A stretch of DNA of 63,700 bases. Origin: a virus. The stretch's first letter is position 1. Each line of letters starts with the position of its first letter. The position numbers and the translations under genes were made by a program. Positions 2,928-62,811 of this stretch are shown piece after piece. Below the pieces are notes generated by a model, which saw only the letters and a program-made list of their open reading frames with translations, had not been told where the DNA came from and ran no database searches. Location of the stretch: IMG/VR virus record IMGVR_UViG_3300029789_000007; one strand, written 5' to 3'.

Positions 2928-4378
2928 TGTATAGATATGCGCATAAAAACGTAAGACCTTTTTCAGCTGTCTGCCATAATAATTACGGCAGACAAGTTAT
3001 TTTCACACGTAAAAGGCAAATCACAAAAAATAACATAATCGAAGAACTGAATAAAGCACTTGTGATTCACGAACAAAACGCTATTGAGATTGAGTATCTT
3101 GACAGATACTATCGTGGTGACCAACCGATTTTGTATCGGCAAAAGGTAAATCGTCCGGAAATCAATAACAAGATTGCCGTAAATCTTGCGTATGAGCTTG
3201 TTGAGCGCAAAACCGCAGAGATGTGTGCCGAGCCAATCCAATATGTATTGCGTGGTACCGATAACCATAAGTCGGAAGAAATCACACAGCTTAACATTAC
3301 AATGGACTCGGAAAGCAAACAGGAGTGCGATATAGACATACATCGTTGGAGAAGTATATGCGGTACCGGCTACAGATTCATCGGTAATGATGATGGACAA
3401 GGACAGTTGCTTGATGAGAGCGATTTTTATCTATCGTCTGAAAATCCAATGTATACCTTTGTAGCATACTACTCAAACGGACGTCCGGCATTCTCTTGTC
3501 AAATCGGAGAGGACGAGGACGGAGCAGATATTTATTATGTGTTCACTGATAATGAGTGGTTTGATATTCGCAACGACAAGATTTATGCAAGTGGAATAAA
3601 CGGCAACAGAGCAATTCCGGTGATTGAATATCCAAACAATGCAAGGCGATTATCTGATATCGAAATGACTATTGCAATCACAGATGCTATTAACGTGCTT
3701 ACATCAGACAGAATTAATGGAGTCGAGCAGTTTGTGTCTGCATGGGTGAAATTCGTTAATTGTGAGATTGATATAGACACATTCAGAAAAATGAGACAAG
3801 AGGGAGCATTGGTAGTTAAATCTAACAATGGTTCAGAGAATAAGGCTGATGTTGATGTAATGACGAGCGAGCTTAATCAGACAGAGGGGCAAGTGGTATT
3901 TACTGACCTTTTTGAAAGATTTTTAAGCATACAAGGCCTTGCAAATCGACAGGGCAACACAGGCGGTGACACCGGTTCTGCTGTAGAACTACGAAACGGA
4001 CATTACGATGCCGGGCTTAGAACAGCTATTAACGAGCCTATTCTTAAGAAATCGGAGAGAATGGCACTTAGGCTTATTCTTAACAGGCTGAGAATTAATA
4101 AGGGCTTTACGCTTATGCCTAGCGATGTTGAGATACACATTAATCATAATAAGCTCGACAACATGCTTATTAAGGCAGAGGTGCTTGAAATATTACTTAG
4201 GTGCGGTATCAATTACAAGAGAGCCGTCAAGACGATTGATATGTTTAGCGACCCTGAACAAGTCACTCTTGAAAGCGCTAAGCGCATGGAAATGTTATTC
4301 CCGGAGGAACAGCCGACAACAGCTACACCTAACAATAATAATGATGATAAGAACAATGGAAAGACAGCCAATGAATAA
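2927..4378 (+). CDS. Portal protein (SPP1 gp6-like)
   Basis: YLDRYYRGDQPILYRQKVNRPEINNKIAVNLAYELVERKTAEMCAEPIQY is the portal N-terminal signature; size and position after terL; start chosen at internal ATG 2927. Confidence 0.8.
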   Translation: MYRYAHKNVRPFSAVCHNNYGRQVIFTRKRQITKNNIIEELNKALVIHEQNAIEIEYLDRYYRGDQPILYRQKVNRPEINNKIAVNLAYELVERKTAEMCAEPIQYVLRGTDNHKSEEITQLNITMDSESKQECDIDIHRWRSICGTGYRFIGNDDGQGQLLDESDFYLSSENPMYTFVAYYSNGRPAFSCQIGEDEDGADIYYVFTDNEWFDIRNDKIYASGINGNRAIPVIEYPNNARRLSDIEMTIAITDAINVLTSDRINGVEQFVSAWVKFVNCEIDIDTFRKMRQEGALVVKSNNGSENKADVDVMTSELNQTEGQVVFTDLFERFLSIQGLANRQGNTGGDTGSAVELRNGHYDAGLRTAINEPILKKSERMALRLILNRLRINKGFTLMPSDVEIHINHNKLDNMLIKAEVLEILLRCGINYKRAVKTIDMFSDPEQVTLESAKRMEMLFPEEQPTTATPNNNNDDKNNGKTANE

Positions 4379-4407
4379 TTGGCTGTCAATTTATTTTGGA
4401 GCTTGAT

Positions 4408-5034
4408 ATGGCAGACGAAATCCACGCACTTAACAAAAATGAAATACAGGACATAGATTATGATACATATTTTGGTGAGATGGATTTGTCCGACAAGGAA
4501 AAGGAAGATAGAAAAAAGCTTGCTGAAAAGTTTGAAAAAATCTTTGTTATGCTATTTGCCTTGTTATCCGGCAAGGAAGAAACAGAGATAACCACTATCA
4601 CCAAAGAATTTATTGTCAGATATGAGAGCATTGCCACACAGTACTGTAAGGCAAAGAGAACACCCTCATATATTACGGATTATGCCCGGTACATTGTGAA
4701 TGAAGTGGTTGACGCTACCACACAAAATACTGACGTAGAGTATTTTACTTCACAAAAGCGGGCAAAAAATGTAGCTGCGAATGAAGCTAATGCAGTCGGC
4801 AATTACAGATTGCAAACCGAAATGGTGAAACAGGGCTACAAAACAAAAGAGTGGCGTTCAAAAGAGGATTCACATGTCAGACCTACACATGCAGATGTTG
4901 ACAGAAAGAGAATTGATATTTTTGAGCCGTTTGAAGTCGGAAATTCGCTTATGATGTTTCCGAAAGACCATTCTTTAGGGGCACAGGTAAAAGAAATAGC
5001 AGGGTGTAGATGCAGTGTTAAATATTACAAATAA
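4408..5034 (+). CDS. Head morphogenesis protein (SPP1 gp7 / Mu F-like)
   Basis: WRSKEDSHVRPTHADVDRKRIDIFEPF motif; follows portal; GGAG 6 nt upstream of ATG 4408. Confidence 0.7.
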   Translation: MADEIHALNKNEIQDIDYDTYFGEMDLSDKEKEDRKKLAEKFEKIFVMLFALLSGKEETEITTITKEFIVRYESIATQYCKAKRTPSYITDYARYIVNEVVDATTQNTDVEYFTSQKRAKNVAANEANAVGNYRLQTEMVKQGYKTKEWRSKEDSHVRPTHADVDRKRIDIFEPFEVGNSLMMFPKDHSLGAQVKEIAGCRCSVKYYK

Positions 5035-5036
5035 TG

Positions 5037-5072
5037 AGCAACTTGTAAGGAAAACTTATAGGTTGCTTTTTA
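5037..5072 (+). terminator. Intrinsic terminator
   Basis: agcaac...gttgct stem followed by ttttt. Confidence 0.5.
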
Positions 5073-5167
5073 TTATACAAAAAATTTGCAGTTGTGCGTT
5101 AAACAACAGAAAAACTCGGCTGGTGCGACCAGCGATAACAAAAGCGTGAGTTACGGAGGTAATTGAA

Positions 5168-11465: not shown

Positions 11466-12524
11466 ATGGCATATAAAGGAATTGACGTATCGTCATATCA
11501 AGGAAATATTGATTGGAGTAAGGTTAAGTGGGCTGGAGTGCAATTTGCAATCCTTAAAATAATTCGCAAAGACCTTAATCCGGATAAGACCTTTGAGCAA
11601 AATTGGAAAGGCTGTACTGATGTAGGAATGCCAATACAAGGTGTTTACAACTACTCATACGCTACAACAGTAGATAAGGCAAAGACAGACGCACAGAGAG
11701 TGATTGAGGTACTTAACGGAAGAAAAACTTTCGTTTGGTTAGATGTTGAAGATAAATGTCAGCAAGGACTCGGACAGACACTTATTGATATTATCAACAC
11801 ATATCAGAGCGTTATCAAAAGTACCGGGCTTAACTTCGGTGTATACACAGGACTTAGCTTTTACAATCAGTACATTGCGCCATACGCAAATCAGATTAAT
11901 TGTCCGTTTTGGATAGCACGTTATCCGTCAACTAAAGGAATGTCTATTGGTGATGAGCCTAATAGCGCAAAGAAGCCTGTTATTCAACATCCTCTGTATG
12001 GCTGGCAGTATTCAAGCGCGTTTACTTGTAGCGGTCTGAATAACAGTACTGACGCTAACTTACTCTATGTTGAGCTTGGTAAGGGCGATGGAATAGAGAA
12101 TAATCCGGCACCAGTAGCAACTCCGACACCAATAGCAACTCCGGTAAAGAATAACGCTTGGAAAGGCAATGAGGAGTATTACCTCGATAATAATGATGTA
12201 AGAAAATGGCAGCACGCTATGAATGTAGGCTTCGACCTCAAAGGAGCTGATGTACTGAAAGAAGATGGTAAATTTGGAGCCAACTCGCAGGCATTCGCAA
12301 AAAACCACAATCTGTGGAGTGGTCAGAAACATTACTGCCCGACAGCCATTAAGTGGTTGAGAAAAACTCTACATGACAAGTATCATTTCTACAAACTTGA
12401 TACTGATTATAAAGAGTGGAGTGACTACCTCACTAAATGTGTCATGGTATTTCAAAAGAATAGAGGTCTTAAGCAAGATGGATATGTTGGATTGATTACA
12501 ACATACTATCTGCTCAAAGACTAA
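11466..12524 (+). CDS. Endolysin: GH25 muramidase plus two PG_binding_1-like repeats
   Basis: GIDVSSYQGNIDWSKVKWAGVQFAILKI (GH25 N-terminus); C-terminal KEDGKFGANSQ and LKQDGYVGLITTYYL peptidoglycan-binding repeats. Confidence 0.85.
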   Translation: MAYKGIDVSSYQGNIDWSKVKWAGVQFAILKIIRKDLNPDKTFEQNWKGCTDVGMPIQGVYNYSYATTVDKAKTDAQRVIEVLNGRKTFVWLDVEDKCQQGLGQTLIDIINTYQSVIKSTGLNFGVYTGLSFYNQYIAPYANQINCPFWIARYPSTKGMSIGDEPNSAKKPVIQHPLYGWQYSSAFTCSGLNNSTDANLLYVELGKGDGIENNPAPVATPTPIATPVKNNAWKGNEEYYLDNNDVRKWQHAMNVGFDLKGADVLKEDGKFGANSQAFAKNHNLWSGQKHYCPTAIKWLRKTLHDKYHFYKLDTDYKEWSDYLTKCVMVFQKNRGLKQDGYVGLITTYYLLKD

Positions 12525-19229: not shown

Positions 19230-19745
19230 ATGGCAATTCAAATGAGACGAGGGGCATACGCACAGTTTGACCCCTCAAAAATGAAAGCCGGAGAATGGGC
19301 GGTATCGACCGACTCCGACACGAAAAAACAGCAGATATGGATGTGTTTCGCGCCCGGAATAGTTAAGCGAATGGGAACTGTTGAGGATTTTGACTTTGAA
19401 ATTCAAAGACTTATTCAGAGTTACCTTGACGGCATGGCTCAATCCGTGTCACAGGCTCAAAAATCAGCACAAACTGCGACAGAAAAAGCTAACTCGGCAA
19501 GCAGTTCTGCTTCTCAGGCTCAAAAATCAGCGCAAACTGCTTCGCAAAAAGCAAACGAGGTCGCGCAAGTTTCAGGAAAGATTGATACGGCGGTAAGTCA
19601 AGCAAACGCAGCTACAAAGGCTGCAAATGAAGCTGCACAAAGAGCAGAACAACAAGCCGGACTAGTCGAGCAGAAAGCAAACGGAAGAGGCATTACTTTT
19701 TCCGTGACAAGTGCCGGATTACTCAATGTAAGCAAGGAGGACTAA
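19230..19745 (+). CDS. Tail fibre protein with Mtd-N/hyaluronidase-type N-terminal motif and SQAQKSAQTA repeat
   Basis: MAIQMRRGAYAQFDPSKMKAGEWAVSTD matches the xRRGxxAxxxxxxLxxGE fibre N-terminus; internal 63-nt-spaced duplication. Confidence 0.5.
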   Translation: MAIQMRRGAYAQFDPSKMKAGEWAVSTDSDTKKQQIWMCFAPGIVKRMGTVEDFDFEIQRLIQSYLDGMAQSVSQAQKSAQTATEKANSASSSASQAQKSAQTASQKANEVAQVSGKIDTAVSQANAATKAANEAAQRAEQQAGLVEQKANGRGITFSVTSAGLLNVSKED

Positions 19746-19746
19746 T

Positions 19747-21015
19747 ATGAGCGGAATAGACATTATATCAGACACAACAGGGCAAGCGATTGTTGAGAGT
19801 ATTAAAGCCCTTGGTACAAAATTAAGCGAGGGAAGAGTTATTTATGGTGTTCACATTAATGGCGCGGACAGCAACCCAAAAACAAGAGTAAGATATTTAG
19901 CAGACGCAGTAGGCATGACTCCAGCAACCATGAATTTCGCGAGCGGAACTTTTGATTATGGTTCATGGGCGAATGCCTTTTTTATGCCAAAGCCATGTAT
20001 GCTTAAAACGAATGGCCAAGTTGACTATTACCTCAACGAGAACGATTTGACTAAAAAAACAGATGGCAGTGCGTCAGATATAGCAAACATTGATTACGAT
20101 GGAAACGCGATGATTGAGTGGGGAAATGGCACAGACATTATATGGTGGAAAATTGCACCCGACAAAGGTAATCCAAACAGTGCGAGCCTTTATGTTGCTA
20201 ACTATCAAGCTGATAAAGATTTTAAAAATCTAAATTTCATCGACATTAACGGCAATGAAAAATCTCATTTTTATACACCAATTTATAATGGCTCACTTGA
20301 CAGCAACAATAAGCTACGCTCAATAAGTGGTCAAACAGTTATTAAATCGAAATCTGCTAGTCAAGAAATGACATATGCAAGAGCTAATGGCGCCGGATAT
20401 GAAATTGAGCAATATATTGACAGACTCTTGATTAATATTTTACTTATCATCATGGGAAAATCTACTGATACGCAAGATGTATTCGGACGAGGCATGAGCG
20501 AAAATGCCGGTGATAAAAACTTGCTGCTTGAGATCGGTACAATGAATGACAAAGGCTTATTTTGGGGCGAGAATGCCGGAAAAGCCGGAGTTAAAGTATT
20601 TGGTATGGAGAATTATTACGGCAATCAGTGGCGAAGAACAGTTGGACTTATCCTTGCTAATGGCATAGTGAAAGTCAAGCTGTCTCCATCAACAAAGGAT
20701 GGAAGCAAAGCAACTAACTATAACACTGATGGAGCAGGATATATCGAGATACCTAATTCAACTCCTAGTGGTACAAGTGGCGGATATATCAAAGATATGT
20801 TATACACGGCATTAGGCATGTTTCCGACATCAATTACAGGTTCATCATCGACCTATTATCCTGATGGTTGTTGGTTTAACATTGCAATTATAGCCTTTGC
20901 TCTTTTCGGTGGCTCCCTGAACAACGGCCGCCCTTGCGGCCCGTTTTGCGTGGTCTTGGACGACGTGGCTGGTCCTGCGGGGTGGAACTTCGGGGCTTCT
21001 CTTTCCTACAAATAA
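19747..21015 (+). CDS. DGR target: receptor-binding/tail fibre protein with variable C-type-lectin-fold-like C-terminus
   Basis: Carries VR in its last 40 codons (AFALFGGSLNNGRPCGPFCVVLDDVAGPAGWNFGAS); start overlaps upstream stop (TAATATG). Confidence 0.8.
   Translation: MSGIDIISDTTGQAIVESIKALGTKLSEGRVIYGVHINGADSNPKTRVRYLADAVGMTPATMNFASGTFDYGSWANAFFMPKPCMLKTNGQVDYYLNENDLTKKTDGSASDIANIDYDGNAMIEWGNGTDIIWWKIAPDKGNPNSASLYVANYQADKDFKNLNFIDINGNEKSHFYTPIYNGSLDSNNKLRSISGQTVIKSKSASQEMTYARANGAGYEIEQYIDRLLINILLIIMGKSTDTQDVFGRGMSENAGDKNLLLEIGTMNDKGLFWGENAGKAGVKVFGMENYYGNQWRRTVGLILANGIVKVKLSPSTKDGSKATNYNTDGAGYIEIPNSTPSGTSGGYIKDMLYTALGMFPTSITGSSSTYYPDGCWFNIAIIAFALFGGSLNNGRPCGPFCVVLDDVAGPAGWNFGASLSYK
20893..21000 (+). 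repeat. DGR variable repeat (VR)
   Basis: 108 bp aligned without gaps to TR; 14 differences, every one at a TR adenine. Confidence 0.9.
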
Positions 21016-21036
21016 CTTGCAACAGGGAAGAGGGAA

Positions 21037-21074
21037 TTTCTGCCTAAGCAGAAAGGGAGAAACCGCGTTTCTCC
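21037..21074 (+). promoter_or_regulatory. Two tandem hairpins just 3' of VR (candidate DGR target-recognition structure and/or terminator)
   Basis: tttctgc/ctaa/gcagaaa (21037-21054) and ggagaaac/cgc/gtttctcc (21056-21074). Confidence 0.5.
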
Positions 21075-21133
21075 TAAGAAAATTTGTAACTATAAACGTG
21101 TGTAGTTAATTTTATATAAGGGATTTAGTTTGC

Positions 21134-21241
21134 GCCTTTGCTCTTTTCGGTGGCAACCTGAACAACGGCCGCCATTGCGGCACGTTTTACGTGAACTTGA
21201 ACAACGAGGCTGGTAATGCGAGGTGGAACATCGGGGCTTCT
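21134..21241 (+). repeat. DGR template repeat (TR)
   Basis: Non-coding copy of VR with 22 adenines; would encode AFALFGGNLNNGRHCGTFYVNLNNEAGNARWNIGAS (AAY-rich). Confidence 0.9.
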
Positions 21242-21374
21242 GTGCCTATCATTCATGGGATAAAATGAATGCAGACTAAATTCCGTACCCCTTGGTAAAA
21301 ATTAACTCGATGCAAGCTACTGCTAGTAGTAGGATATGGTCGAACGTGGTAGAGAGGATAGGAAGAGAATACGT

Positions 21375-22520
21375 ATGAGAACATACAGAAATCTATATGC
21401 TGAATTTATTTCAGACGAAAATATAATACTTGCAATTAAGAATTTCTCTAAGGGTAAAAAGAGAAGAAACAAGGTTAGGAAAATTTTAGCAGACCTTGAT
21501 ACATACATACCCAAAATTAGAGAATATGCGATTAACTTCACACCTTTTGAGCATAAGCCCAAAGAAATATATGACGGAATATCACGAAAGAAACGTAAGA
21601 TAGTAATACCGACAGTTATGGAGTCAATAGTACATCACATGATAGTAAACGTGCTTAAGCCCATGTTTAACAAGGGAATGTATGAGCATAGTTATGGCTC
21701 GGTTCCTAAGCGTGGCGGTGCGTATGGCAAGAAATGTATATGCAAATGGATAAGGCAAGGCGGTAAGACCATTAAATATTGTTATAAGCTTGATGTGAAG
21801 CAATTTTACGCTAGTATTCCACAGGATAAATTAATTGAAAAGCTTAAATCTAAAATCAAAGATTTTAAATTCATGCGGATTGTTGAAAATGTTATATACT
21901 GCGTGCCGAATGGCTTACCACTTGGCTTTTATACCTCTGTATGGTTTGCTAACTGGTATTTAAGTGAGCTTGACCATGAAATCAAATCACTCGGTATCGA
22001 ACTGAAATATGCACGCTATGTTGACGATATGGCTATATTTTGTGCAAGCAAAAAGAAATTGCACCAGGTAAAAGCCGTGATTGACAACAGGCTTGCAGAA
22101 TTAGGGCTGATAGTCAAGGTGAACTGGCAGATATTTCATTTTCACTATTTGCCCCGAAATCCATATGTCGGCAAGAATGGAAAGTCAGCAACATATGGAA
22201 GAGCGCTTGATTTCATGGGATATAAATTCTATAGGAATAGAACCACCTTAAGAAAAACGATCCTTAAGAAAATAAGAGCTAAGGCAGTTAGAATATGGCA
22301 AAAAACAAAGGTTACAATATTTGACTCAAAACAAATGGTTTCTGCTCTTGCGTGGATTAAAAATTGCGATATTTACGATTATTACAGGGAACATATTAAA
22401 CCATTTATAGATTTCGGAAAACTAAAACACAAAATTTCAACAGTAGACAGAAAGGCAAGGTGTATTGAATATGACAGAATACAAGCTCGTAGAGAGTATG
22501 CAATCGGACAAGCCGCTTGA
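21375..22520 (+). CDS. DGR reverse transcriptase
   Basis: LDVKQFYASI, GLPLGFYTSVWFANWYL and YVDDMAIF RT motifs; 133 nt downstream of TR; start set at ATG 21375 (MRTYRNLYAEFISDENI). Confidence 0.9.
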   Translation: MRTYRNLYAEFISDENIILAIKNFSKGKKRRNKVRKILADLDTYIPKIREYAINFTPFEHKPKEIYDGISRKKRKIVIPTVMESIVHHMIVNVLKPMFNKGMYEHSYGSVPKRGGAYGKKCICKWIRQGGKTIKYCYKLDVKQFYASIPQDKLIEKLKSKIKDFKFMRIVENVIYCVPNGLPLGFYTSVWFANWYLSELDHEIKSLGIELKYARYVDDMAIFCASKKKLHQVKAVIDNRLAELGLIVKVNWQIFHFHYLPRNPYVGKNGKSATYGRALDFMGYKFYRNRTTLRKTILKKIRAKAVRIWQKTKVTIFDSKQMVSALAWIKNCDIYDYYREHIKPFIDFGKLKHKISTVDRKARCIEYDRIQARREYAIGQAA

Positions 22521-22770
22521 CATTGACACAACATCTTCTCCGAATATCGTTTATCAGCGAAAAAACATTAAATCGGTTGAAGCAACAGGGAGAGAGGATG
22601 ATTTTACTTACAAGCCTAAGCATTGGGAGTACGAGGAGCGAGAGCTGACACAAGATGAATACTCGCAGTATCTTATTGCTATGGAACAGGCAAAAGAGAT
22701 TAACGAGCACTCTGATGAGGAAGCGATAGACAACTACACAAGACAGTTGATGGATGAGGGGGTGCTTTAA
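22471..22770 (+). CDS. Acidic phage protein preceding XkdX
   Basis: About 99 aa, ends ...TRQLMDEGVL; overlaps the RT 3' end; typical pre-XkdX position. Confidence 0.45.
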   Translation: MTEYKLVESMQSDKPLDIDTTSSPNIVYQRKNIKSVEATGREDDFTYKPKHWEYEERELTQDEYSQYLIAMEQAKEINEHSDEEAIDNYTRQLMDEGVL

Positions 22771-24402: not shown

Positions 24403-24762
24403 TTAATTTGATTTATTTTGAGTATTTTCATACATCATATCTATTAAATTCATAATATTTTCTTGCTCTTTATCCGACAATTTAGATAATTTCAACGCAT
24501 AGTCCTTGATTCTACTATCCATGTTCGACAGAGCCAAGTCTTTTGTTGCCTCTTCAACAACTGAATGGTGCTCTTTTCCGGTAACTAAATAATCAAGTGA
24601 ACAATCAAGACATTCTGCGATTTTTACCAGCTTAAACAATTTTGGACAGCTTTTTCCTTTTTTCCAATCTGAAAAAGTACTTTTAGGGAAACCGCCATAT
24701 TTAGCCACTTCTGAATCATTTAACCCTTTTGAGTCTCTTAATTTACAATATCTTTCGTACAT
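24403..24762 (-). CDS. XRE-family HTH repressor (CI-like)
   Basis: LNDSEVAKYGGFPKSTFSDWKKGKSCPKLFKLVKIAECLDCSLDYLV HTH; divergent from the Cro-like gene. Confidence 0.8.
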   Translation of the reverse strand: MYERYCKLRDSKGLNDSEVAKYGGFPKSTFSDWKKGKSCPKLFKLVKIAECLDCSLDYLVTGKEHHSVVEEATKDLALSNMDSRIKDYALKLSKLSDKEQENIMNLIDMMYENTQNKSN

Positions 24763-24788: not shown

Positions 24789-25347
24789 GATTTCTCAACA
24801 TTTGGGGTTGACAAATAAGACTTCCTAATGTAGAATGAAAAAGAAGTTAGGAAATCTCAACTCAATAAAAAATAAAATTGAGAAAATAATATTATGTTTC
24901 TGGACAATTCATAGTATACACGATTTTCTAATTTTTATCAAGACTTAGTTAGGATTTTTGAACTAAAAACAAAAGCTGCTAGTGTACTACCACCAACAGC
25001 CGTTGCCTTATTTTTTACACCACATACATTTTGCAGTCTTTCGACGCACTGTGTAGTACCAATGCTTCTTTAAATGTTCCGTCACTTATGCAGTTTAAGT
25101 TCAGCAGTCTAATTGCCATTAGCTGACGGATTGAGAGGAGTATCTAGCGTAGCACGGCATATTATCGGACATGCCAACCATGATTTTTTATCGAGCTTTA
25201 CTGCCCAAAATGCGCTACATCGATTGCTACATTTTAAATGCGACCTCGCAAATATGGAACAGGCAAAATCAAAATTGCTTTCAAGGCTTTTACCTCCTAG
25301 CGTATTTTGCCTAATATGACATTTTTATTGTAACGGATTTCCTAACT
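24789..25347. repeat. Operator-like repeats in the switch region
   Basis: AGTTAGGAAAT-type: 24845-24856, 24947-24957, inverted 25336-25347, partial 24820-24828. TTTCTCAA-type: near 24791 and 24853, inverted near 24878. Confidence 0.45.
24808..24836 (+). promoter_or_regulatory. Sigma-70-type promoter TTGACA-17-TAGAAT (rightward early promoter)
   Basis: ttgaca 24808-24813, 17-nt spacer, tagaat 24831-24836. Confidence 0.6.
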
Positions 25348-42758: not shown

Positions 42759-42897
42759 ATAGCAGAACTATAAGTGATATAGAGCCGATTAAAAAACAAT
42801 GTGTGTACGAGGATAACAGGCCGTGTAACAGCTCATGCCGATACTCAAATACTTGTATACACAGTGCGAACAAAACCGAAGGATAGGAGATAGGCTT

Positions 42898-43299
42898 ATG
42901 AAGTTTTCAAAACTTACTAAGCCGGAACTTGAAGAGATTATGAAAAATGCCAATTTCACCGATGAGGAAGTGGAAGTTTTTAAGTTGCTAGTTGCTGATA
43001 AAAGCCTTGAAGAGGTATCACAGAGACTATTAATCTCAAAAACAACCACTTCCCGGAGAGTGGCAGACATTAAAGAAAAGATAGAAAGGAGTCAGGCAAT
43101 GATTAACAAAGTGCCAATATGGGAAAAGGTAACGCTGACGATTGATGAGGCCGCTGAATACAGCAATATCGGAATTAACAGAATCAATGATATGCTTAAT
43201 AATCCCTCGTGCCCTTTTGTACTTTTTGTCGGGAGAGGTAAGCGATTAGTCAAGCGCAAGGAATTTGAGAAATATCTCGAAAAGACAGATAGTATATAG
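42898..43299 (+). CDS. Sigma-r4-like HTH fused to excisionase-family HTH (Xis-like)
   Basis: FTDEEVEVFKLLVADKSLEEVSQRLLISKTTTSRRV plus VTLTIDEAAEYSNIGINRINDML..FVLFVGRGKRLVKRKEFEKYL; directly upstream of the integrase. Confidence 0.55.
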   Translation: MKFSKLTKPELEEIMKNANFTDEEVEVFKLLVADKSLEEVSQRLLISKTTTSRRVADIKEKIERSQAMINKVPIWEKVTLTIDEAAEYSNIGINRINDMLNNPSCPFVLFVGRGKRLVKRKEFEKYLEKTDSI

Positions 43300-43314
43300 A
43301 TATATTGAATTATA

Positions 43315-43358
43315 AGCCATTATGTAGTAATATAGAAATTATCATATAATGGCTTTTG
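43315..43358 (+). terminator. Hairpin with T-run between xis-like and int
   Basis: aagccattat...ataatggctt (10 bp) then tttt. Confidence 0.5.
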
Positions 43359-43383
43359 ATTTTGAAAGGAGCCATAAATCAGT

Positions 43384-44571
43384 ATGGGAAAGGATTTGAG
43401 AGGAAAAGAGCTGGGAGTCGGAATAACCCAGCGCAAGGACGGACTTTATCAGGGCAGATATAAAGATAGGTTCGGCAAGAGCAAGACAATTTACAACAGC
43501 AAGTTGTCAGAACTGCGGAAAGAACTCAGTAAAGCAGTGACCGACAATCAACAATTCGCAAGTGTTAGAGACAGCATTACCCTCGATGCGTGGTTTGACA
43601 GGTGGATGAATGTATACAAGAAAAAGAGAGTGCGCCCCAATACCATTAGGGAGTACACGCATATATATAGGAAGAACATTTCACCATACTTAGGAAACCA
43701 TGAAATAACATCTATTCGCAAGTCAGATGTGCAGTTACTTATCGACAAAGCTTCTGACGATAACTATAAGTATGAGAGACAGAGCAAAATCAAGGTTATT
43801 TTAAATGACATGTTCAGTAGAGCTATGGAAGATGACCTGATGATTAAGAATCCGGCGAAAGGTGTAAAGTTGAGAGCAGACAAGGAAGTTAATGCTTTTG
43901 CATTGACAGTAGAGCAGCAGAACGAGTTTTTTGAAGCGTGCAAGGGCACGTTTTACGACAACATGTATAATGTGGCGGTTAATACAGGCTTGCGCCCAGG
44001 AGAACTGTTTGCACTCACAATGGCAGATATACATATGGACGAGGGCTATATTGATGTTAATAAGACACTTGTGTATCAGAAATACCTTGAAGATAAAGGC
44101 AAGACATTTCATGTTGAGCCGCCAAAAACCAAGCAGAGTTACAGACACGTACCAATTAACAGTGTGTGCAAGGAATATCTGACAAAGCAATTTGAACTTA
44201 AAAAGATAGTTTCGGCACGCAGACCCAAGGAGCAAAACGAATATTTGTTTGTTACAAGGTTCAACACACCGATTAATTCGGTTATATACAGCGACTCTAT
44301 ACGTTCAGTTGTAAGACGGATAAATGACACAAAGAGCAGTGACAATGAATTTCCATTTTTTAGCGGTCACACATTCAGACATACGTTTGCGACAAGATGT
44401 TTTGAGTCAGGGATAGAGCCGAAAGTCGTTCAATCATATTTGGGCCATGCAACACTGAAAATGACAATGGACTTGTATACACATGTTACACCTGAAAAAT
44501 CGTTTGCTGACATTGAAAAAATCGTTGGCACCGGCAACAAAATCATAGAATATAGAAGAAAATGTGTGTAG
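43384..44571 (+). CDS. int: Tyrosine integrase with Tn916-Int-type N-terminal arm-binding domain
   Basis: GITQRKDGLYQGRYKDRFGKSKTIYNSKLSELRKEL (arm-binding type); C-terminal HTFRHTFATR...LGHATLKMTMDLYTHV catalytic region. Confidence 0.9.
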   Translation: MGKDLRGKELGVGITQRKDGLYQGRYKDRFGKSKTIYNSKLSELRKELSKAVTDNQQFASVRDSITLDAWFDRWMNVYKKKRVRPNTIREYTHIYRKNISPYLGNHEITSIRKSDVQLLIDKASDDNYKYERQSKIKVILNDMFSRAMEDDLMIKNPAKGVKLRADKEVNAFALTVEQQNEFFEACKGTFYDNMYNVAVNTGLRPGELFALTMADIHMDEGYIDVNKTLVYQKYLEDKGKTFHVEPPKTKQSYRHVPINSVCKEYLTKQFELKKIVSARRPKEQNEYLFVTRFNTPINSVIYSDSIRSVVRRINDTKSSDNEFPFFSGHTFRHTFATRCFESGIEPKVVQSYLGHATLKMTMDLYTHVTPEKSFADIEKIVGTGNKIIEYRRKCV

Positions 44572-55554: not shown

Positions 55555-55558
55555 ATAT

Positions 55559-55630
55559 AGGGCATTCGCCAAGCGGTAAGGCACAGGATTTTGATTCCTG
55601 CATTCGTTGGTTCAAATCCAACATGCCCTG
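55559..55630 (+). tRNA. tRNA-Gln (anticodon TTG)
   Basis: Cloverleaf folded by hand: acceptor agggcat/atgccct, anticodon arm cagga-ttTTGat-tcctg, T-arm gttgg-ttcaaat-ccaac; D region tcgccaagcggtaaggca as in bacterial tRNA-Gln. Confidence 0.85.
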
Positions 55631-55975
55631 TTCGGGGTTTACTTGGTTCCCCGACATTGGACTTAGTAGTTCCTTTCACCCTCATAGTGGAAAGCTGTTA
55701 AGAGCCGTCACAAGGCTCGTGAGGGTTAATCGTGTATAATCCCACAATGCACGAGCGTGAAAACCAACCTGTCGTAAAGACACCTGTAATAGGCAGAGTA
55801 GACATATATACCCCCTTTAATTGTTAAACTAGGGCAACTCAAATCATATGAGTCTTAGGTGAGGTGCAATTCCTCACATGTCCTTTGCTGTAGGTTTCTT
55901 AGTTCTTTTCCTACAGCACATACAAATTTATATCTCCGGAGGGTGTAGCCACTCCTTAGACTACACCCTCATTAT
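55631..55975 (+). ncRNA. 345-nt ORF-free, hairpin-dense spacer (candidate structured RNA)
   Basis: Stems at 55632-37/55649-54, 55678-84/55720-26 (enclosing gagcc..ggctc), 55859-64/55872-77, 55888-94/55910-16 and 55939-48/55961-70. Confidence 0.35.
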
Positions 55976-56048
55976 TGGCTTGTAGTTCAAAAGGTAGAAC
56001 GCTTGACTGTTAATCAAGTAGTTGTAGGTTCGAGTCCTATCAAGCCAG
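55976..56048 (+). tRNA. tRNA-Asn (anticodon GTT)
   Basis: Acceptor tggcttg/caagcca, anticodon arm cttga-ctGTTaa-tcaag, T-arm gtagg-ttcgagt-cctat. Confidence 0.85.
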
Positions 56049-56292
56049 CTTGCAGAAATAAAATATAGCGTAAGATATGGTAGCAGCTACAAGGTGTTGC
56101 GTGATATACAAGTCGGGTAAACAGCTGGGCAACACTCTACCAATAAACAACAGAAAATCATAGCGCATGTCCCTGTCTAAAGGTGCCGACTAACTGTTGC
56201 ATAGTATCATTTCTGCAATTAAGGGTTCTTCCCTTTAATGAAATTTTTCGTATTTTTTGCTTAAACAGAGCTATTAGGTTAGTTCTGTTTAA
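56049..56292 (+). ncRNA. 244-nt ORF-free spacer closed by a 10-bp long-range helix (candidate structured RNA)
   Basis: ttgcagaaat 56050-59 pairs with atttctgcaa 56209-18; gtgttgc 56094-100 pairs with gcaacac 56129-35; terminal hairpins attaaggg..ccctttaat and aaacaga..tctgttt. Confidence 0.35.
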
Positions 56293-56365
56293 CGGCATGT
56301 AGCTCAGTGGTAGAGCAGTCGGCTATTAACTGATTTGTCGTGGGTTCGATTCCCAACCTTGCCGA
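56293..56365 (+). tRNA. Asn-type tRNA-like gene with anticodon ATT and imperfect acceptor and T stems
   Basis: tagctcagtggtagagc D-arm and cggct-ATT-aactg loop match an Asn tRNA body with G34 replaced by A; one acceptor mismatch, G-A at the T-stem end, one extra nucleotide. Confidence 0.45.
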
Positions 56366-56367
56366 TT

Positions 56368-56484
56368 ATTGATGTGTGGCGAAATGGGTAAACGCTATTG
56401 CCGTAAGATAATTCGTTGAAACCGGCAACTTAGATGACGAGAGTCGCGACAATCATGCGTGGTTCAAATCCACACCACATCAAT
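56368..56484 (+). ncRNA. 117-nt tRNA-like element (9-bp closing helix, Leu/Ser-type D-arm, T-arm, oversized centre)
   Basis: attgatgtg/cacatcaat helix; tg-gcg-aaatgggtaaa-cgc D-arm; cgtgg-ttcaaat-ccaca T-arm; ttgccg..cggcaa stem with a 19-nt loop; too long for a normal tRNA. Confidence 0.35.
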
Positions 56485-56693
56485 CATACGTCGGTTTAGT
56501 GCGAGCTGTTATATCTTGAATAGCGGTTGCGTAACGCTGATGGTCTGCAATATAGCAGTTTCGGAAAAATAAAAGAAAACACACAAAAACAAGTTGCTAG
56601 TAGGTACGCGCGACTGAAAGCAATGGGGTGAGACACTTCAAAATTCTGTAATGTGTTTTGATGAGCCTTTTGATGGAGTGTATCTTGCCTTTT

Positions 56694-56774
56694 CGGATAG
56701 TAGTTCAGTTGGAAGAACAACCACTGCAATAGCAGTAATTGAGGGAGTCACAGGTTCGAGTCCTGTCTATCCGA
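56694..56774 (+). ncRNA. 81-nt tRNA-like element whose anticodon arm is a 5-bp stem with a 4-nt loop
   Basis: Perfect acceptor cggatag/ctatccg, D-arm gttc-agttggaa-gaac, T-arm acagg-ttcgagt-cctgt, but centre is actgc-aata-gcagt plus a 13-nt extra arm. Confidence 0.4.
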
Positions 56775-56870
56775 TTACAACAAACTAGGTTAGCTACCGA
56801 AAAGCACAAGCCTTAGTGCCTGTTTGTTGTTTTGTTAATAAGGCTATTATCAGAAAGGCAGGTAATAAAC

Positions 56871-57962
56871 ATGCTATCAGAAAATGAAATCCAAACAAAA
56901 GTTAATTTCTTATCATCAGCAAGGTGCAATCACACGTTCCATAAATACATTGACATAACAGGTGACTTGATAGAGGGAACACTTTTATCAAGGATTTTAT
57001 ATTGGTTTGCGCCAAGCAAAGACAATAAGAGCAAAGTTAAGATATACAAGGACGGCGAATATTGGATTGCAAAGCAAAGAAAAGATTGGTGGGAAGAAAT
57101 ACGGATTACTGAAAGACAGTATGATAAAGCGATTAAATCGTTGGTGAAAAAGAAATTTGTAATTACAGCAAAATACAAATTCAACTCAATGCCGACTATA
57201 CATATAAGACCTAATTATGATGTTATCAACGCAGAAGTTAAAAAATGGGAAGAAAATATCAGACAAGAGGTTATAGCAGAAGATAGAGGACAGGAATTAC
57301 ATAAACAGGCAGACGGGAATGACACAAAATGTAATTCCCAAGGGAATAACACAAAGTGTAATTCGGGAATGCCACAAGGTGTAACTCTTTTAACAGGGAT
57401 TACTAATAATGATTACCTTAACACTAATTACGAAACATTAAATACTAAAAGTAATTCTCTTAACAGAGAACAGTGTAATTCTTTTTCACCTAAAGATAAA
57501 AAAGTGAAAGAGTTTAAGCCGATAAGCGAATACTCTCAAAAAGATTGGGAAGTTGCCGAAGAAAGAATGGTAAACAGAGCTGGTAAGATAGCCTATGATT
57601 GGACTAACGATGAAACACTTAAAGAAAATGTAAAGTTATTCTTTGAATACTTCCTAGGCAAGCATAGAGAATACACCGGAGAATATCACTATCCATTAAC
57701 AGACAAGGTTTTATCAAGAGTGGTAGACAGTTTAACAAAAGAAACTGAAATAGAGCGTGACGGATATACGGACAATTATTACTCAACGATAAGCAACATG
57801 AAAGATAATACAGACTACAAGATGTTAGTTGATGAATATTTCAATACAAAGTTTTCAACACAATGCGATTACAGCTTGGCACATTTTTCTTCTGAAAAAG
57901 TTTTGACCAACATTATGAACCATGTTTGTAAGAGCAGTTGGTGTGAAAGCAAAGAGTGGTAG
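56871..57962 (+). CDS. Second replication-initiator-like protein (winged-helix-like N-terminus, internal iterons)
   Basis: LLSRILYWFAPSK...EYWIAKQRKDWWEEIRITERQYDKAIKSLVKKKF; three ~24-bp repeats inside the gene. Confidence 0.35.
   Translation: MLSENEIQTKVNFLSSARCNHTFHKYIDITGDLIEGTLLSRILYWFAPSKDNKSKVKIYKDGEYWIAKQRKDWWEEIRITERQYDKAIKSLVKKKFVITAKYKFNSMPTIHIRPNYDVINAEVKKWEENIRQEVIAEDRGQELHKQADGNDTKCNSQGNNTKCNSGMPQGVTLLTGITNNDYLNTNYETLNTKSNSLNREQCNSFSPKDKKVKEFKPISEYSQKDWEVAEERMVNRAGKIAYDWTNDETLKENVKLFFEYFLGKHREYTGEYHYPLTDKVLSRVVDSLTKETEIERDGYTDNYYSTISNMKDNTDYKMLVDEYFNTKFSTQCDYSLAHFSSEKVLTNIMNHVCKSSWCESKEW
57315..57387 (+). repeat. Three tandem ~24-bp repeats GGGAAT(G/A)(A/C)CACAA(A/G)(A/G)TGTAA(T/C)TC
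   Basis: Copies start at 57315, 57342 and 57365; they encode GNDTKCNSQGNNTKCNSGMPQGV. Confidence 0.6.
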
Positions 57963-61602: not shown

Positions 61603-62811
61603 ATGGCTGATTTGAAAATATTTACAGAAAATATAGAACATGAAGCATTAAATCAGATATATACGCTTATAAAACAGCCGGCATTTTCGGATTGCAAGAT
61701 AAGAATTATGCCAGATGTTCATGCAGGAGCAGGGTGTGTTATCGGGTTTACTGCTGATTTAGGGGAAAAAGTAATACCGAATATTGTTGGAGTTGACATA
61801 GGCTGTGGGATGCTTACTACAAACTTGGGGAATATTGATATTGATTTTGAGAGATTAGATAACATCATTAGAGAATATGTTCCAAGTGGTAGAAGGGTTC
61901 ATGAAGAAGAAAACTCATCTGTCGCAAGCGATATTATTGAAAAATTGTATTGCAAGGAACAGTTGAAAAATATAGATTGGCTGAAAAGGAGTTGCGGCAC
62001 GTTGGGAGGCGGCAATCATTTTATCGAAGTTGATAGCGATAGCAAGAATAATAAATATCTTGTTATTCATTCGGGAAGTAGAAATGCCGGAAAGCAAGTT
62101 GCAGAAATATATCAGCAAATGGCGATTGATGATATATCGGGAAAATCGAATTTCAAACAAGATAGTGAGAAATTGATTGCTGAATACAAAAAATGTAAGA
62201 GAGAAAGAGAAATCAGCAAGGCTATCAAAGAATTAAAGCAGTCCTACGAAAAAAATACAACTAAAATCCCTAGAGAGTTATCATATCTTGTTGGAAAACA
62301 TAGAGAAATGTATTTACACGATATGAAATTATGCCAAGAGTTTGCGGAAATTAACAGAAGAGCCATTCAGAGCATTATTTGCTACTATATGGGTTGGAAA
62401 GTTACAAAAGAAACGGAGCGATTTCAAACAATTCACAACTACATTGAACACGATACAAATATTGTTCGTAAAGGCGCTATTTCTGCAAAAGCGGGGGAAA
62501 AAGTACTAATACCAATAAACATGCGTGACGGTTGCATTTTGGGAATTGGCAAGGGAAATGAAGATTGGAATTATTCAGCACCGCATGGAGCGGGACGAAC
62601 TATGAGTAGGTCAAAGGCAAAAGAAAGCATTTTACTAGAAGAGTATCAAAAAGCAATGGACGGAATATTTACAACATCTGTAAATACATCTACGATTGAT
62701 GAAAGCCCTATGGCATATAAAACAATGGATGAAATAATTGGAAATATAAAAGATACTGTTGAAATAGTTGACATTATAAAACCGATTTACAATTTCAAAG
62801 CAAACGAATAA
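61603..62811 (+). CDS. rtcB: RtcB RNA 3'-phosphate/5'-OH ligase
   Basis: IRIMPDVHAGAGCVIGF, VGVDIGCGM, GTLGGGNHFIEVD, HSGSRNAGKQVA, APHGAGR. Confidence 0.9.
   Translation: MADLKIFTENIEHEALNQIYTLIKQPAFSDCKIRIMPDVHAGAGCVIGFTADLGEKVIPNIVGVDIGCGMLTTNLGNIDIDFERLDNIIREYVPSGRRVHEEENSSVASDIIEKLYCKEQLKNIDWLKRSCGTLGGGNHFIEVDSDSKNNKYLVIHSGSRNAGKQVAEIYQQMAIDDISGKSNFKQDSEKLIAEYKKCKREREISKAIKELKQSYEKNTTKIPRELSYLVGKHREMYLHDMKLCQEFAEINRRAIQSIICYYMGWKVTKETERFQTIHNYIEHDTNIVRKGAISAKAGEKVLIPINMRDGCILGIGKGNEDWNYSAPHGAGRTMSRSKAKESILLEEYQKAMDGIFTTSVNTSTIDESPMAYKTMDEIIGNIKDTVEIVDIIKPIYNFKANE

Follow-up and report, generated by a model that had tools for sequence, protein, structure and literature searches.

A diversity-generating retroelement without an accessory gene and its tail-fibre target in a temperate gut phage, probably of Agathobacter rectalis

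The window, the whole stretch of viral DNA that was analysed (63,700 nucleotides), contains a real diversity-generating retroelement (DGR). With a probability of about 0.93, we read it as an accessory-less TR-RT (Architecture A1) DGR in a temperate siphovirus-like phage, probably of Agathobacter rectalis, that recodes the C-terminus of a tail-fibre protein. A DGR was recognised by differences between TR and VR confined to TR adenines, an in-frame VR with adenines at codon positions 1/2, and an adjacent DGR-class reverse transcriptase (RT). The adenine pattern, an in-frame VR in the target gene, and the adjacent DGR-class RT were all found (Table 1).

Tens of thousands of DGRs have already been reported from gut phages (MGV catalogue, PMC8241571), and because such DGRs are so numerous there, the element is a clean but ordinary example that adds little alone. 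IMG/VR contained more than 40 near-identical relatives of it. The comparison provides a well-documented natural series: dozens of genomes combine an identical or almost identical TR with VRs that all differ, and relatives that have lost the cassette carry a frozen VR. This suits the study of how DGRs act and are lost in A. rectalis, a dominant gut Firmicute. The comparison also links RT-18, an orphan Rfam motif, to Avd-less DGRs, and it bears on whether DGR reverse transcription can run without Avd and on the building of compact diversification tools.

Table 1. Positions in the window of the retroelement, its target gene and the predicted structures around them
Feature	Position	Strand	Description
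DGR target gene	19747..21015	+	422-aa tail-fibre ('tail collar fiber'-type) protein, VR at C-terminus
VR	20893..21000	+	36 in-frame codons, ending 4 codons before the stop of ORF 19747-21015
Three hairpins directly 3' of VR	20999..21074	+	DNA fold; 20999-21007/21024-21032 (encloses the stop codon), 21037-21054, 21056-21074
TR clamp helix, 5' strand	21120..21133	+	GGGAUUUAGUUUGC, abuts the TR start
TR	21134..21241	+	108 nt, 22 adenines, 8 AAY codons, non-coding
Short stem-loop	21251..21270	+	AUUCAU / GGGAUAAA / AUGAAU, just 3' of TR
TR clamp helix, 3' strand	21271..21284	+	GCAGACUAAAUUCC, ends 1 nt before RT-18 hairpin P1
RT-18 RNA (Rfam RF03021)	21286..21365	+	P1 hairpin 21286-21297, A-rich run, multi-stem core with conserved UAGUAG
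DGR reverse transcriptase	21375..22520	+	381 aa, YVDD catalytic motif, motif 4 = LGFYTSV

The repeat pair

Direct re-alignment of VR with TR reproduced the ungapped match proposed in the first-pass annotation, with 108 nt in each copy at an offset of 241 nt. The adenine-only pattern described there was recovered in full: all 14 mismatches fell on TR adenines, none of the 86 non-A positions differed, and 8 of the TR adenines were unchanged. Non-adenine mismatches, which had been named in advance as evidence against the element, did not appear on computational re-alignment. The probability of all 14 mismatches landing on A by chance was 2.3e-12, and an ordinary duplication is unable to explain the pattern because the differences fall on the adenines of one copy only. 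Every change in VR lay at codon position 1 or 2, and the 11 predicted amino-acid changes (N>S, H>P, T>P, Y>C, N>V, N>D, N>D, E>V, N>P, R>G, and I>F) were confirmed.

The same pair was recovered independently by a repeat search (family D1). When every A of TR was changed to N and the result was used as a query, just these two copies were found in the window, against 0 expected; the window holds one VR and one TR. Extension of the repeat beyond either end was impossible, even with A-mismatches tolerated. VR and TR have in common a G/C-rich, adenine-free end, TCGGGGCTTCT, and diverge immediately after GGGGCTTCT, and extended IMH/IMH* homology past the repeat was not found. Directly 3' of VR, the three hairpins gave a DNA fold with z = -2.66 (2 of 200 shuffles folded as well) and were near-invariant in close relatives. 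By analogy with Guo et al. 2011, they are candidates for a target-recognition structure and/or a transcript end.

This arrangement resembles the prototype DGR of BPP-1 (mtd-avd-TR-brt), where VR likewise lies at the 3' end of a tail-fibre gene, TR lies upstream of the RT gene, and the adenine-only TR-to-VR differences occupy codon positions 1 and 2 of AAY-rich codons. Structured spacer RNA between TR and RT and hairpins downstream of VR are also common to both. Unlike BPP-1, the window has no avd; 118 nt of non-coding DNA, in which no ORF was detected, separate the target stop codon from TR; no extended IMH/IMH* repeat is recognisable; and the probable host is a Gram-positive gut anaerobe.

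Target protein, phage, and host

The target ORF matched phrog_5302 'tail protein' (7e-92), one of its homologs is named 'tail collar fiber protein' in nr, and a Foldseek search of the target model against BFVD returned tail collar fiber proteins (down to 8e-26), including crAss-like cr6_1, cr7_1, and cr85_1 proteins. In its fold family, as judged from this search, the target resembles those of the gut-phage 'tail collar fiber' DGRs (crAss-like, gut Myoviridae; PMC8241571; PMC7290462); in contrast to those phages, the present one belongs to a different lineage and its target is shorter. Distant loci on contigs of 130-170 kb (L049-L053) have the C-terminal domain, RT-18, and the architecture in common with the window. 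Around the target, phrog tail proteins lie upstream and an XkdX-family gene downstream, and the fibre shaft seems to be the product of its own 171-aa gene.

A C-type-lectin fold, which the first-pass annotation had attributed to the target, was only partly supported by structural modelling. The top PDB Foldseek match of the full-length AF2 model (mean pLDDT 61.9, pTM 0.72) was the C-type-lectin DGR variable protein TaqVP of Thermus aquaticus (PDB 5vf4; probability 0.99, E 1e-3), and no other PDB match exceeded a probability of 0.1. TaqVP, the only confident solved-structure match, also carries its VR at the C-terminal end. However, its superposition on this moderate-confidence model gave 13-15% identity, a TM of 0.37-0.40, and an rmsd of ~10 Å, with no sequence-profile match, and TaqVP is a cellular protein, whereas the target is a phage fibre protein. 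At the sequence level, no match to a C-type-lectin family was found: Pfam detected no C-lectin or FGE-type domain in the target, its C-terminal half, or the distant targets. The C-terminal 228 aa modelled alone reached a pLDDT of just 43, a poor model. PDB searches with the target, by single sequence and by profile, returned nothing meaningful. Weak Pfam hints of Mtd_N were seen in the L049 and L051 targets and in the 171-aa upstream ORF. Tentaclins, which are DGR-targeted phage receptor-binding proteins, have an N-terminal C-lectin domain with the VR, followed by at least one Ig domain (PMC10743442). Membership in that group was ruled out by topology, as the target carries its VR at the very end of the C-terminus and showed no Ig domains.

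From the position of the gene and by analogy with BPP-1, we infer that the diversification would allow programmable host-range switching, as had been predicted from the sequence earlier. A somewhat unlikely alternative is that the DGR works and the diversified protein has no role in host range, binding mucus glycans or non-host surfaces or acting as a secondary adhesin. No homolog of the target has been characterised experimentally, Pfam gave no match to it, and adhesin or immune-cell binding roles have been proposed for other DGR-targeted gut-phage proteins (PMC10743442). In addition, an 810-aa protein encoded upstream could be the primary receptor-binding protein because it matches a 'host range and adsorption' PHROG. 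However, the target gene sits where a distal tail fibre is expected, flanked by the tail proteins and the XkdX-family gene, tail collar fibres are its closest neighbours by structure, and BPP-1 offers a precedent for tropism switching; these points argue for the host-range reading.

The phage is a ~60-kb temperate siphovirus-like one whose portal is of the SPP1 type and whose integrase is of the Tn916 type. Its host is probably Agathobacter rectalis, as suggested by the source names of the target homologs (Agathobacter). Megablast of the 3.8-kb region against GenBank phages (INPHARED) gave no match, so an annotated isolate is not available. When genome contigs were scanned for a prophage host, one related locus (L132) was found on a 30-kb contig in a MAG labelled Bacteroidaceae; a Bacteroidaceae host on this basis was set aside as a probable binning artefact.

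Diversification in relatives, accessory genes, and RNA structures

Comparison between genomes is strong evidence of DGR activity in this lineage. Related phages yielded 39 distinct VR/TR pairs, made up of 39 distinct VRs against 21 TRs, in which 477 mismatches lay at TR-A and 13 elsewhere. The 776 TR-A sites were still A in 299 cases and had become G in 195, C in 142, and T in 140, so substitution reaches all three bases. In seven genomes with an identical TR, every VR was different: TR showed 0% divergence, adjacent non-coding DNA 0.4-0.7%, and VR 14.4%, and 309 of the 327 pairwise VR differences fell in TR-A columns. At the protein level, entropy was 2.33 bits at TR-A codons versus 0.22 in the remaining protein, and 46 of 51 VR peptides were distinct. 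The mismatches were likewise A-only in all independent distant DGR loci (11/11).

No Avd or other accessory gene adjoined the cassette or was present among the 10 small basic ORFs scanned in the window. The ORF after the RT encodes an acidic protein (pI 4.4) that matches phrog_20201 and has no Avd match. Accessory genes (avd, HRDC, MSL, or CH1) are typical of DGRs, not universal, and are absent in Architecture A; Avd is essential in BPP-1. The missing Avd, like the lack of extended IMH/IMH* homology and the altered RT motif 4, speaks against the reading preferred here. Accessory-less Architecture A made up 29% (75/372) of curated DGRs in Wu et al. 2018 (PMC5758913), and because of this count, the missing gene is compatible with DGR membership. 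The element resembles Architecture A1 (TR-RT) of that study, including avd-less 'Lineage 3', in having, in this order, a target with VR, a TR, and an RT, and no accessory gene. Lineage 3A DGRs were reported there in Bacteroides and relatives only, whereas the probable host here belongs to the Lachnospiraceae. The description of the DGR as 'complete' in the first-pass annotation is borne out for TR, VR, an intact RT, and a target in the tail module; with no accessory gene, it is complete in the sense of Architecture A only.

The sequences flanking TR are predicted to form a clamp of 14 bp (dG -20.8, z -3.6). A clamp with compensatory or different sequence occupied the equivalent position in the related loci L132, L044, L045, L048, and L129, and it was weak in L049 and L051. 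A 19-nt inverted repeat (21104-21122/21289-21307) was considered as the main clamp and rejected: in six relatives one of its pairs is lost through T>C at 21303, and the repeat is absent from distant loci, the 14-bp helix being the conserved one. The short stem-loop between TR and the 3' strand of the clamp was present in both the MFE and the centroid folds and was conserved in L132.

In the spacer between TR and RT, the Rfam motif RT-18 scored 43.7 bits against a gathering score of 41.3, and its 3' end overlaps the ribosome-binding site of the RT. At the equivalent position in distant DGR loci it scored 42-58 bits, and it exceeded the threshold in 9 of the 11 independent ones (L046 was unscanned, and L132 had no gathering-level match). 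Its structure was taken from the Rfam covariance model. Compensatory changes were seen in hairpin P1, the only element that MAFFT and RNAalifold recovered from the RT-18 regions, because the 3' half was misaligned. In BPP-1 the spacer RNA is RT-10 instead.

The order in the window is the 14-bp clamp, hairpin P1, and AAAAA. Judged from sequence, this clamp beside a hairpin and an A-run matches the cPRT Stop layout that was published for BPP-1 together with 207 other DGRs (bioRxiv 10.1101/2023.10.23.563531). A cPRT-Stop-like layout, so far reported only from an analysis of Avd-containing DGRs, is present here too. A TR:spacer priming duplex like the TR:Sp of BPP-1 was sought by eye, and none was identified with confidence; a scan for promoters and terminators around the cassette gave no more sites than shuffled sequence.

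We considered that the element should function as follows. An RNA spanning TR and the downstream spacer would be transcribed, and the sequences flanking TR would pair to form the clamp. The clamp and the adjacent RT-18 may then bind the RT and set the start of the cDNA at the 3' end of TR. The RT would copy U, C, and G faithfully and insert any nucleotide opposite adenine, and VR, in the 3'-terminal part of the tail-fibre gene, would be replaced by the mutagenised cDNA. As many as 14 adenine-containing codons would thereby be recoded within the 36-codon C-terminal stretch, with the scaffold held constant. The data show the parts themselves, the adenine-only pattern, VR diversification alongside a fixed TR in related genomes, and the conserved RNA helices; we infer how priming works, that Avd is dispensable, and that the outcome is altered receptor or host specificity.

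Alternatively, the DGR could be decayed or currently inactive, with its parts present and VR no longer diversified, for instance after loss of a trans-acting accessory factor. No Avd was found, and the lineage often loses the cassette: 17 target-based loci with enough downstream sequence have lost it and kept a fossil VR alone, L077 has a TR-only deletion, L065 a truncated RT, and L132 an RT with an internal stop. Against this, the RT ORF in the window is intact with its YVDD motif; TR, clamp, and RT-18 differ by <1% from those of the same-TR genomes whose VRs all differ; and the whole clade lacks Avd, yet its A-specific diversification is abundant. Inactivity is accordingly improbable, and the reading of a working DGR is preferred.

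The reverse transcriptase

The RT was found as annotated, an intact ORF beginning with ATG 133 nt after TR and containing the quoted motifs, including YVDD. It matched Pfam RVT_1 (1.4e-20) and phrog_1423 (1.7e-85). Its best PDB match was the Bordetella phage DGR enzyme bRT (8ub7), with E 9e-15 by single sequence (residues 3-303). The clade profile matched bRT at 6e-31 (111 bits, profile positions 2-338), as opposed to at most 81 bits for group II-like and retron RTs. Among the top matches, bRT alone was aligned across the N-terminal extension and far past the palm, whereas the runners-up stopped at about position 252. The class call is a similarity ranking by single sequence and clade profile.

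An RT from a group II intron, a retron, or a DRT/UG abortive-infection system, with the repeat an ordinary diverged duplication, is hardly credible: models of these families do match the RT, but far under their curated NCBIfam cut-offs, bRT is the best solved-structure match, and the mismatches lie on adenines of one copy, all of them here and nearly all in the relatives. The scores were 107.8 bits against a cut-off of 300 for TIGR04416 (group II intron RT/maturase), 59.7 against 235 for Retron St85, 87.6 against 200 for Drt3a, and 34.7 against 250 for AbiA. PADLOC RT_UG17 gave 104 bits, and the three proteins scanned included no further component of such a system next to the RT. Under gathering or E-value thresholds, Rfam found no group II intron or retron RNA in the window, only RT-18. 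A group II intron would call for flanking intron RNA domains, and a retron, DRT, or UG/Abi system for an msr/msd or system-specific ncRNA and effector genes; the neighbours here are tail genes.

More tentatively, and at clearly less than even odds, the clade may retrohome mutagenically with the RT alone, RT-18 and the clamp supplying Avd-like scaffolding and a V replacing the signature Q in the dNTP pocket. If so, RT-18 would become the first of the orphan 'RT-n' motifs, apart from RT-10, with an assigned DGR function. The element would then consist of just one protein and one RNA, a minimal two-part system with which proteins could be diversified in a targeted way in Gram-positive hosts.

In bRT, R74 and I181 promote adenine mutagenesis, and the descriptive signature of the DGR RT motif is [I/V/L]GxxxSQ (PMC7826257). 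The residues aligned with R74 and I181 are an arginine and a leucine here, and motif 4 conforms to the [I/V/L]GxxxS part, with V in place of the final Q (Q187 in BPP-1). Handa et al. 2020 reported that bRT Q187P leaves the frequency of adenine misincorporation unchanged. Because that substitution is harmless in this respect and V-bearing genomes diversify A-specifically, the V is no argument against function. The same V was present in L132 and in 41 of 43 close-relative loci, the pattern being unmatched in the remaining two, and distant clade members carry SQ or AQ in motif 4.

The repeat pair and its target protein

The region 19600-22700 was re-read and both repeats were realigned by script. 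The variable repeat (VR) and the template repeat (TR), each 108 nt long and 241 nt apart, aligned without gaps and differed at 14 positions, all of which lay at TR adenines (22 in total), while 0 of the 86 non-adenine positions differed. The first-pass annotation had described an ungapped alignment with adenine-only differences, and computational realignment revealed no other mismatch. If differences were scattered at random over the 108 positions, the probability of all 14 falling on the 22 adenines would be 2.3e-12. A separate repeat search recovered the same pair; even with adenine mismatches tolerated, neither end of the repeat could be lengthened. Using TR as a query with A replaced by N, only these two copies were found in the 63.7-kb window, with zero expected; the window contains a single TR and a single VR. 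The VR is in frame with the target ORF and ends four codons 5' of its stop. All 14 changes affect codon positions 1 or 2, and the 11 amino acid replacements listed previously were reproduced exactly.

We consider that the element is a diversity-generating retroelement (DGR) of Architecture A, the accessory-less class of Wu et al. (2018), acting on as many as 14 codons within a 36-codon C-terminal stretch of a tail fibre (probability about 0.93). The TR-spacer RNA, with its clamp helix and RT-18 motif, would be both template and scaffold. The two core features by which DGRs are defined (Wu et al., 2018; PMC5758913) were found, and we regard the element as a family member that would operate like the DGR of BPP-1.

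Features of the DGR locus and of the surrounding phage genome
Feature	Coordinates	Strand	Details
GH25 muramidase	11466-12524		weak sub-threshold peptidoglycan-binding domain match
171-aa ORF	19230-19745		alanine-zipper coiled coil
Direct repeat in 171-aa ORF	19449-19493 / 19512-19556		63-nt spacing, 84% identical
Target ORF	19747-21015		422 aa
VR	20893-21000
Hairpins directly 3' of VR	20999-21074		three hairpins, z -2.66
Deletion sites in related loci	21016-21032 and 22190-22431		L060, L065, L077, L086, L092, L094, L095, L102, L108, L111, L112, L121
8-bp direct repeat	21022-21029 / 22384-22391		one deletion junction type
TR clamp helix	21120-21133 / 21271-21284		14 bp including G-U, dG -20.8 kcal/mol, z -3.6
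TR	21134-21241
RT-18 (RF03021)	21286-21365		Rfam, 43.7 bits vs gathering score 41.3; ends at RT ribosome-binding site
Reverse transcriptase (RT)	21375 (likely ATG start)-22520	+	381 aa, intact ORF, 133 nt after TR, YVDD catalytic motif
CI-like repressor	24403-24762
FuFi-1 RNA (RF02986)	24970-25130	-	124 bits vs gathering score 59.6
Tn916-type excisionase and tyrosine integrase	42835-44571
tRNA cluster	55558-56843 region		Gln-TTG, Asn-GTT, second 'Asn' (ARAGORN: ATT anticodon), Leu-CAA
int-alpA RNA (RF02996)			53.8 bits; directly after the four tRNA genes
376-aa ORF	56832-57962		after int-alpA RNA; no Pfam match
RtcB RNA ligase	61603-62811		Pfam 2e-57

The target matched PHROG 5302 'tail protein' at 7e-92. 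Upstream of it are a tail protein of 810 aa, which matched PHROG 6616 and secondarily a 'host range and adsorption' family, and the 171-aa coiled-coil protein; downstream lie a small acidic protein and one of the XkdX family. By comparison with PBSX-like tail modules, we take this neighbourhood to be the distal tail-fibre position. Searches of PDB and Pfam with the target sequence and profile gave no match. A full-length AlphaFold2 model built with 44 homologs reached moderate confidence (pTM 0.72, mean pLDDT 62), and the C-terminal domain modelled alone gave a poor model. Among solved structures, the sole confident match of the full-length model was TaqVP (probability 0.99, E 1e-3, TM 0.37-0.40), a DGR variable protein of Thermus aquaticus that has a C-type-lectin fold. 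Among predicted viral structures, the model matched 'tail collar fiber' proteins, some of them from crAss-like phages, with values as low as 8e-26. Of the tail protein with a C-type-lectin fold proposed by the first-pass annotation, the tail-fibre part is well supported by PHROG 5302 and the collar fiber matches; the fold is plausible and only partly supported, through the TaqVP match of this model. Diversification may change the receptor or host range. A working DGR whose target binds something other than a host receptor would be compatible with the main explanation, and we consider it rather unlikely.

The N-terminus of the 171-aa ORF carries a very weak Mtd_N domain hint (E 0.057). In two distant DGR loci (L049 and L051) this hint lies at the N-terminus of the target itself (E 0.0015-0.012), so the fibre may be split into two genes here.

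Diversification and cassette loss among related loci

VR and TR were extracted from every related locus. Across 39 distinct VR/TR combinations, 477 mismatches coincided with an adenine in the TR of the same locus and 13 did not, and all 39 VRs were different, compared with 21 TR variants. The 776 TR-adenine sites comprised 299 unchanged, 195 converted to G, 142 to C, and 140 to T, so that every alternative base was represented. An identical TR is shared by seven genomes, the window among them; across these the regions flanking the TR were 0.4-0.7% divergent and the VR 14.4%, with 309 of 327 pairwise VR differences in TR-adenine columns. Mean entropy in 51 close homologs was 2.33 bits for adenine-containing codons, 0.75 for other VR codons, and 0.22 for the remaining protein, and 46 of the 51 had distinct VR peptides. 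The VR has diversified against a fixed TR, and this between-genome pattern is what would be expected, at lineage level, of repeated mutagenic retrohoming. That the copy in the window genome itself is inactive appears improbable.

Among same-TR genomes (L001, L002, L004, L005, L030, and L040), the target body (19747-20892) was ~5% divergent, compared with <1% for the non-coding region containing TR, clamp, and RT-18 (21001-21374), which suggests strong RNA constraint or cassette recombination between fibre alleles.

Both VR and TR were present in 40 of 77 target-protein loci, and a further 17 with enough downstream sequence kept only an adenine-depleted, VR-like 'fossil'. At the fossil loci, homology to the window ends a few bases past the target stop and resumes within the RT 3' end; as RT remnants are present, sequence was deleted at these loci and not inserted in the lineage of the window. 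One type of junction falls exactly within the 8-bp direct repeat ACAGGGAA. Several other, independent-looking deletions share a left end at about 21023 and differ at the right end, which is at ~22192 in L065 and at ~22393 in L086 and similar loci. In L077, the TR alone was lost, between two GGGA repeats. The first of the three hairpins 3' of the VR carries this recurrent left breakpoint in its loop.

Reverse transcriptase, non-coding RNA, and search for an accessory gene

The length, position, and catalytic motif previously proposed for the RT were verified in an intact ORF, whose likely ATG start is preceded by a GGAAGAG ribosome-binding site. It matched Pfam RVT_1 (1.4e-20) and PHROG 1423 'reverse transcriptase' (1.7e-85). 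When all solved structures were searched, the top match was chain 8ub7, a 328-aa 'Reverse transcriptase'; its alignment numbering sets I181 and Q187 on IGxxxSQ, as published for bRT, the BPP-1 DGR enzyme, and the chain is therefore that enzyme. This match spans residues 3-303, whereas the next solved RTs end at about residue 251. A profile of the window RT and six relatives (five distant), all from adenine-specific DGRs, scored 111 bits against bRT (E 6e-31, positions 2-338), at most 81 against group II intron-type RTs, and 34 against retron Ec86. The NCBIfam group II intron, retron, Abi, and Drt models all scored far under their cut-offs (e.g. 108 vs 300). This similarity ranking, which is not a phylogeny, consistently points to the DGR class. 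An RT from another retroelement beside an ordinary duplication is contradicted by these failed cut-offs and by the adenine-only pattern, and is extremely improbable.

The RT signature motif [I/V/L]GxxxSQ reads LGFYTSV in the window. The final valine recurs in L132, a locus from a MAG labelled Bacteroidaceae, and in 41 of 43 close-relative loci, with no match to the pattern in the remaining two; distant clade members end in SQ or AQ. In bRT, the glutamine touches the incoming nucleotide (bioRxiv 10.1101/2023.10.23.563531), and Q187P left the adenine misincorporation frequency unchanged (PMC7826257). Since valine-bearing genomes show abundant adenine-specific diversification, the change appears to be tolerated. 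The L132 RT (4001-5137; 69% identical) has an internal stop codon, and the L030 match (4001-5142), 1 nt shorter than those elsewhere, may be frameshifted; decay of these copies or errors in assembly could account for both.

RT-18 was found at the matching position in nine distant loci (42-58 bits), with RT identity of 34-41% or target identity of 44%. The order target-VR, TR, RT was seen at eleven distant or independent loci, with 7-16 adenine mismatches and 0-2 others; RT-18 scored in all but L046, outside the scan, and L132, which gave no gathering-threshold match. Weinberg et al. (2017; PMC5737381) tied RT-10 alone, as the BPP-1 spacer, to a DGR and speculated that further RT motifs act in such elements; these loci support RT-18 as one of them.

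The 5' strand of the clamp directly abuts the TR start, and its 3' strand ends one base 5' of hairpin P1 of RT-18. In L132, all 14 pairs are retained through two double-sided changes; L044, L045, L048, and L129 have a helix of different sequence at this position, and in L049 and L051 the clamp is weak, with an apparent extra hairpin inserted. P1, which shows compensatory AU-to-GC and CG-to-UA changes, is followed by a conserved adenosine run. The same layout, a TR-flank duplex followed by a stem-loop and adenosines, constitutes the BPP-1 'cPRT Stop', predicted in 207 of 278 Avd-containing DGRs (Handa et al., bioRxiv 10.1101/2023.10.23.563531). By analogy, this suggests the same cis-primed mechanism; neither a priming nucleotide nor a TR:spacer primer duplex was identified in the window. 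The hairpins downstream of the VR might be the counterpart of the BPP-1 target-recognition hairpin (Guo et al., 2011; PMC3240598) or, alternatively, might form the tail-gene transcript end.

The gap between the target stop codon and the TR is only 118 nt long and non-coding, and the ORF 3' of the RT encodes an acidic protein with no relationship to Avd, the BPP-1 accessory protein. A scan of 10 small basic ORFs from other parts of the window gave no match to the Avd family, and no plausible ORF was seen in the longer VR-TR gaps of the two distant relatives inspected (L049 and L051). Accessory-less DGRs make up 29% of the set of Wu et al. (2018; PMC5758913), who also noted one RT lineage without avd, so the lack of an accessory gene is a known variant. 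The element may act independently of Avd; that the clade is truly Avd-independent with RT-18 as its scaffold is a tentative proposal. Neither the missing accessory gene nor the Q-to-V change touches a family-defining feature, and we regard both as variations.

The phage genome and its relatives

The window is a temperate phage genome encoding a terminase, an SPP1-type portal, an E-type major capsid protein, and a 1257-aa ORF in the tape-measure position without a Pfam match. It also encodes a GH25 lysin, a Tn916-type integrase and excisionase, a CI-like repressor, RtcB, and four tRNAs. Target homologs named 'uncultured Agathobacter sp.' and 'Agathobacter rectalis' indicate A. rectalis, a dominant human-gut Firmicute, as the probable host. 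Megablast against INPHARED GenBank phages gave no match; close relatives of the element are already in IMG/VR, which holds >40 with RT identity of 90-99%. DGRs are very common in gut phages: among 25,620 gut viral genomes of high quality that carried an RT, 85.7% were reported to have a TR-VR pair, and the DGRs numbered tens of thousands overall (Nayfach et al., 2021; PMC8241571).

The GH25 gene sits within the tail module, just 5' of the 1257-aa ORF, and not in a lysis cassette. The integrase region is mid-window and not at an end, which fits a circularly permuted phage contig better than a prophage flanked by host DNA. FuFi-1, an orphan structured RNA, adjoins the CI-like repressor gene in the lysogeny-control region and is kept in related phages (L043, 7594-7754; L033, 7590-7742). 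Some 5 kb separate the RtcB gene and the tRNA cluster, and phage RtcB may be a tRNA-repair counter-defence module.
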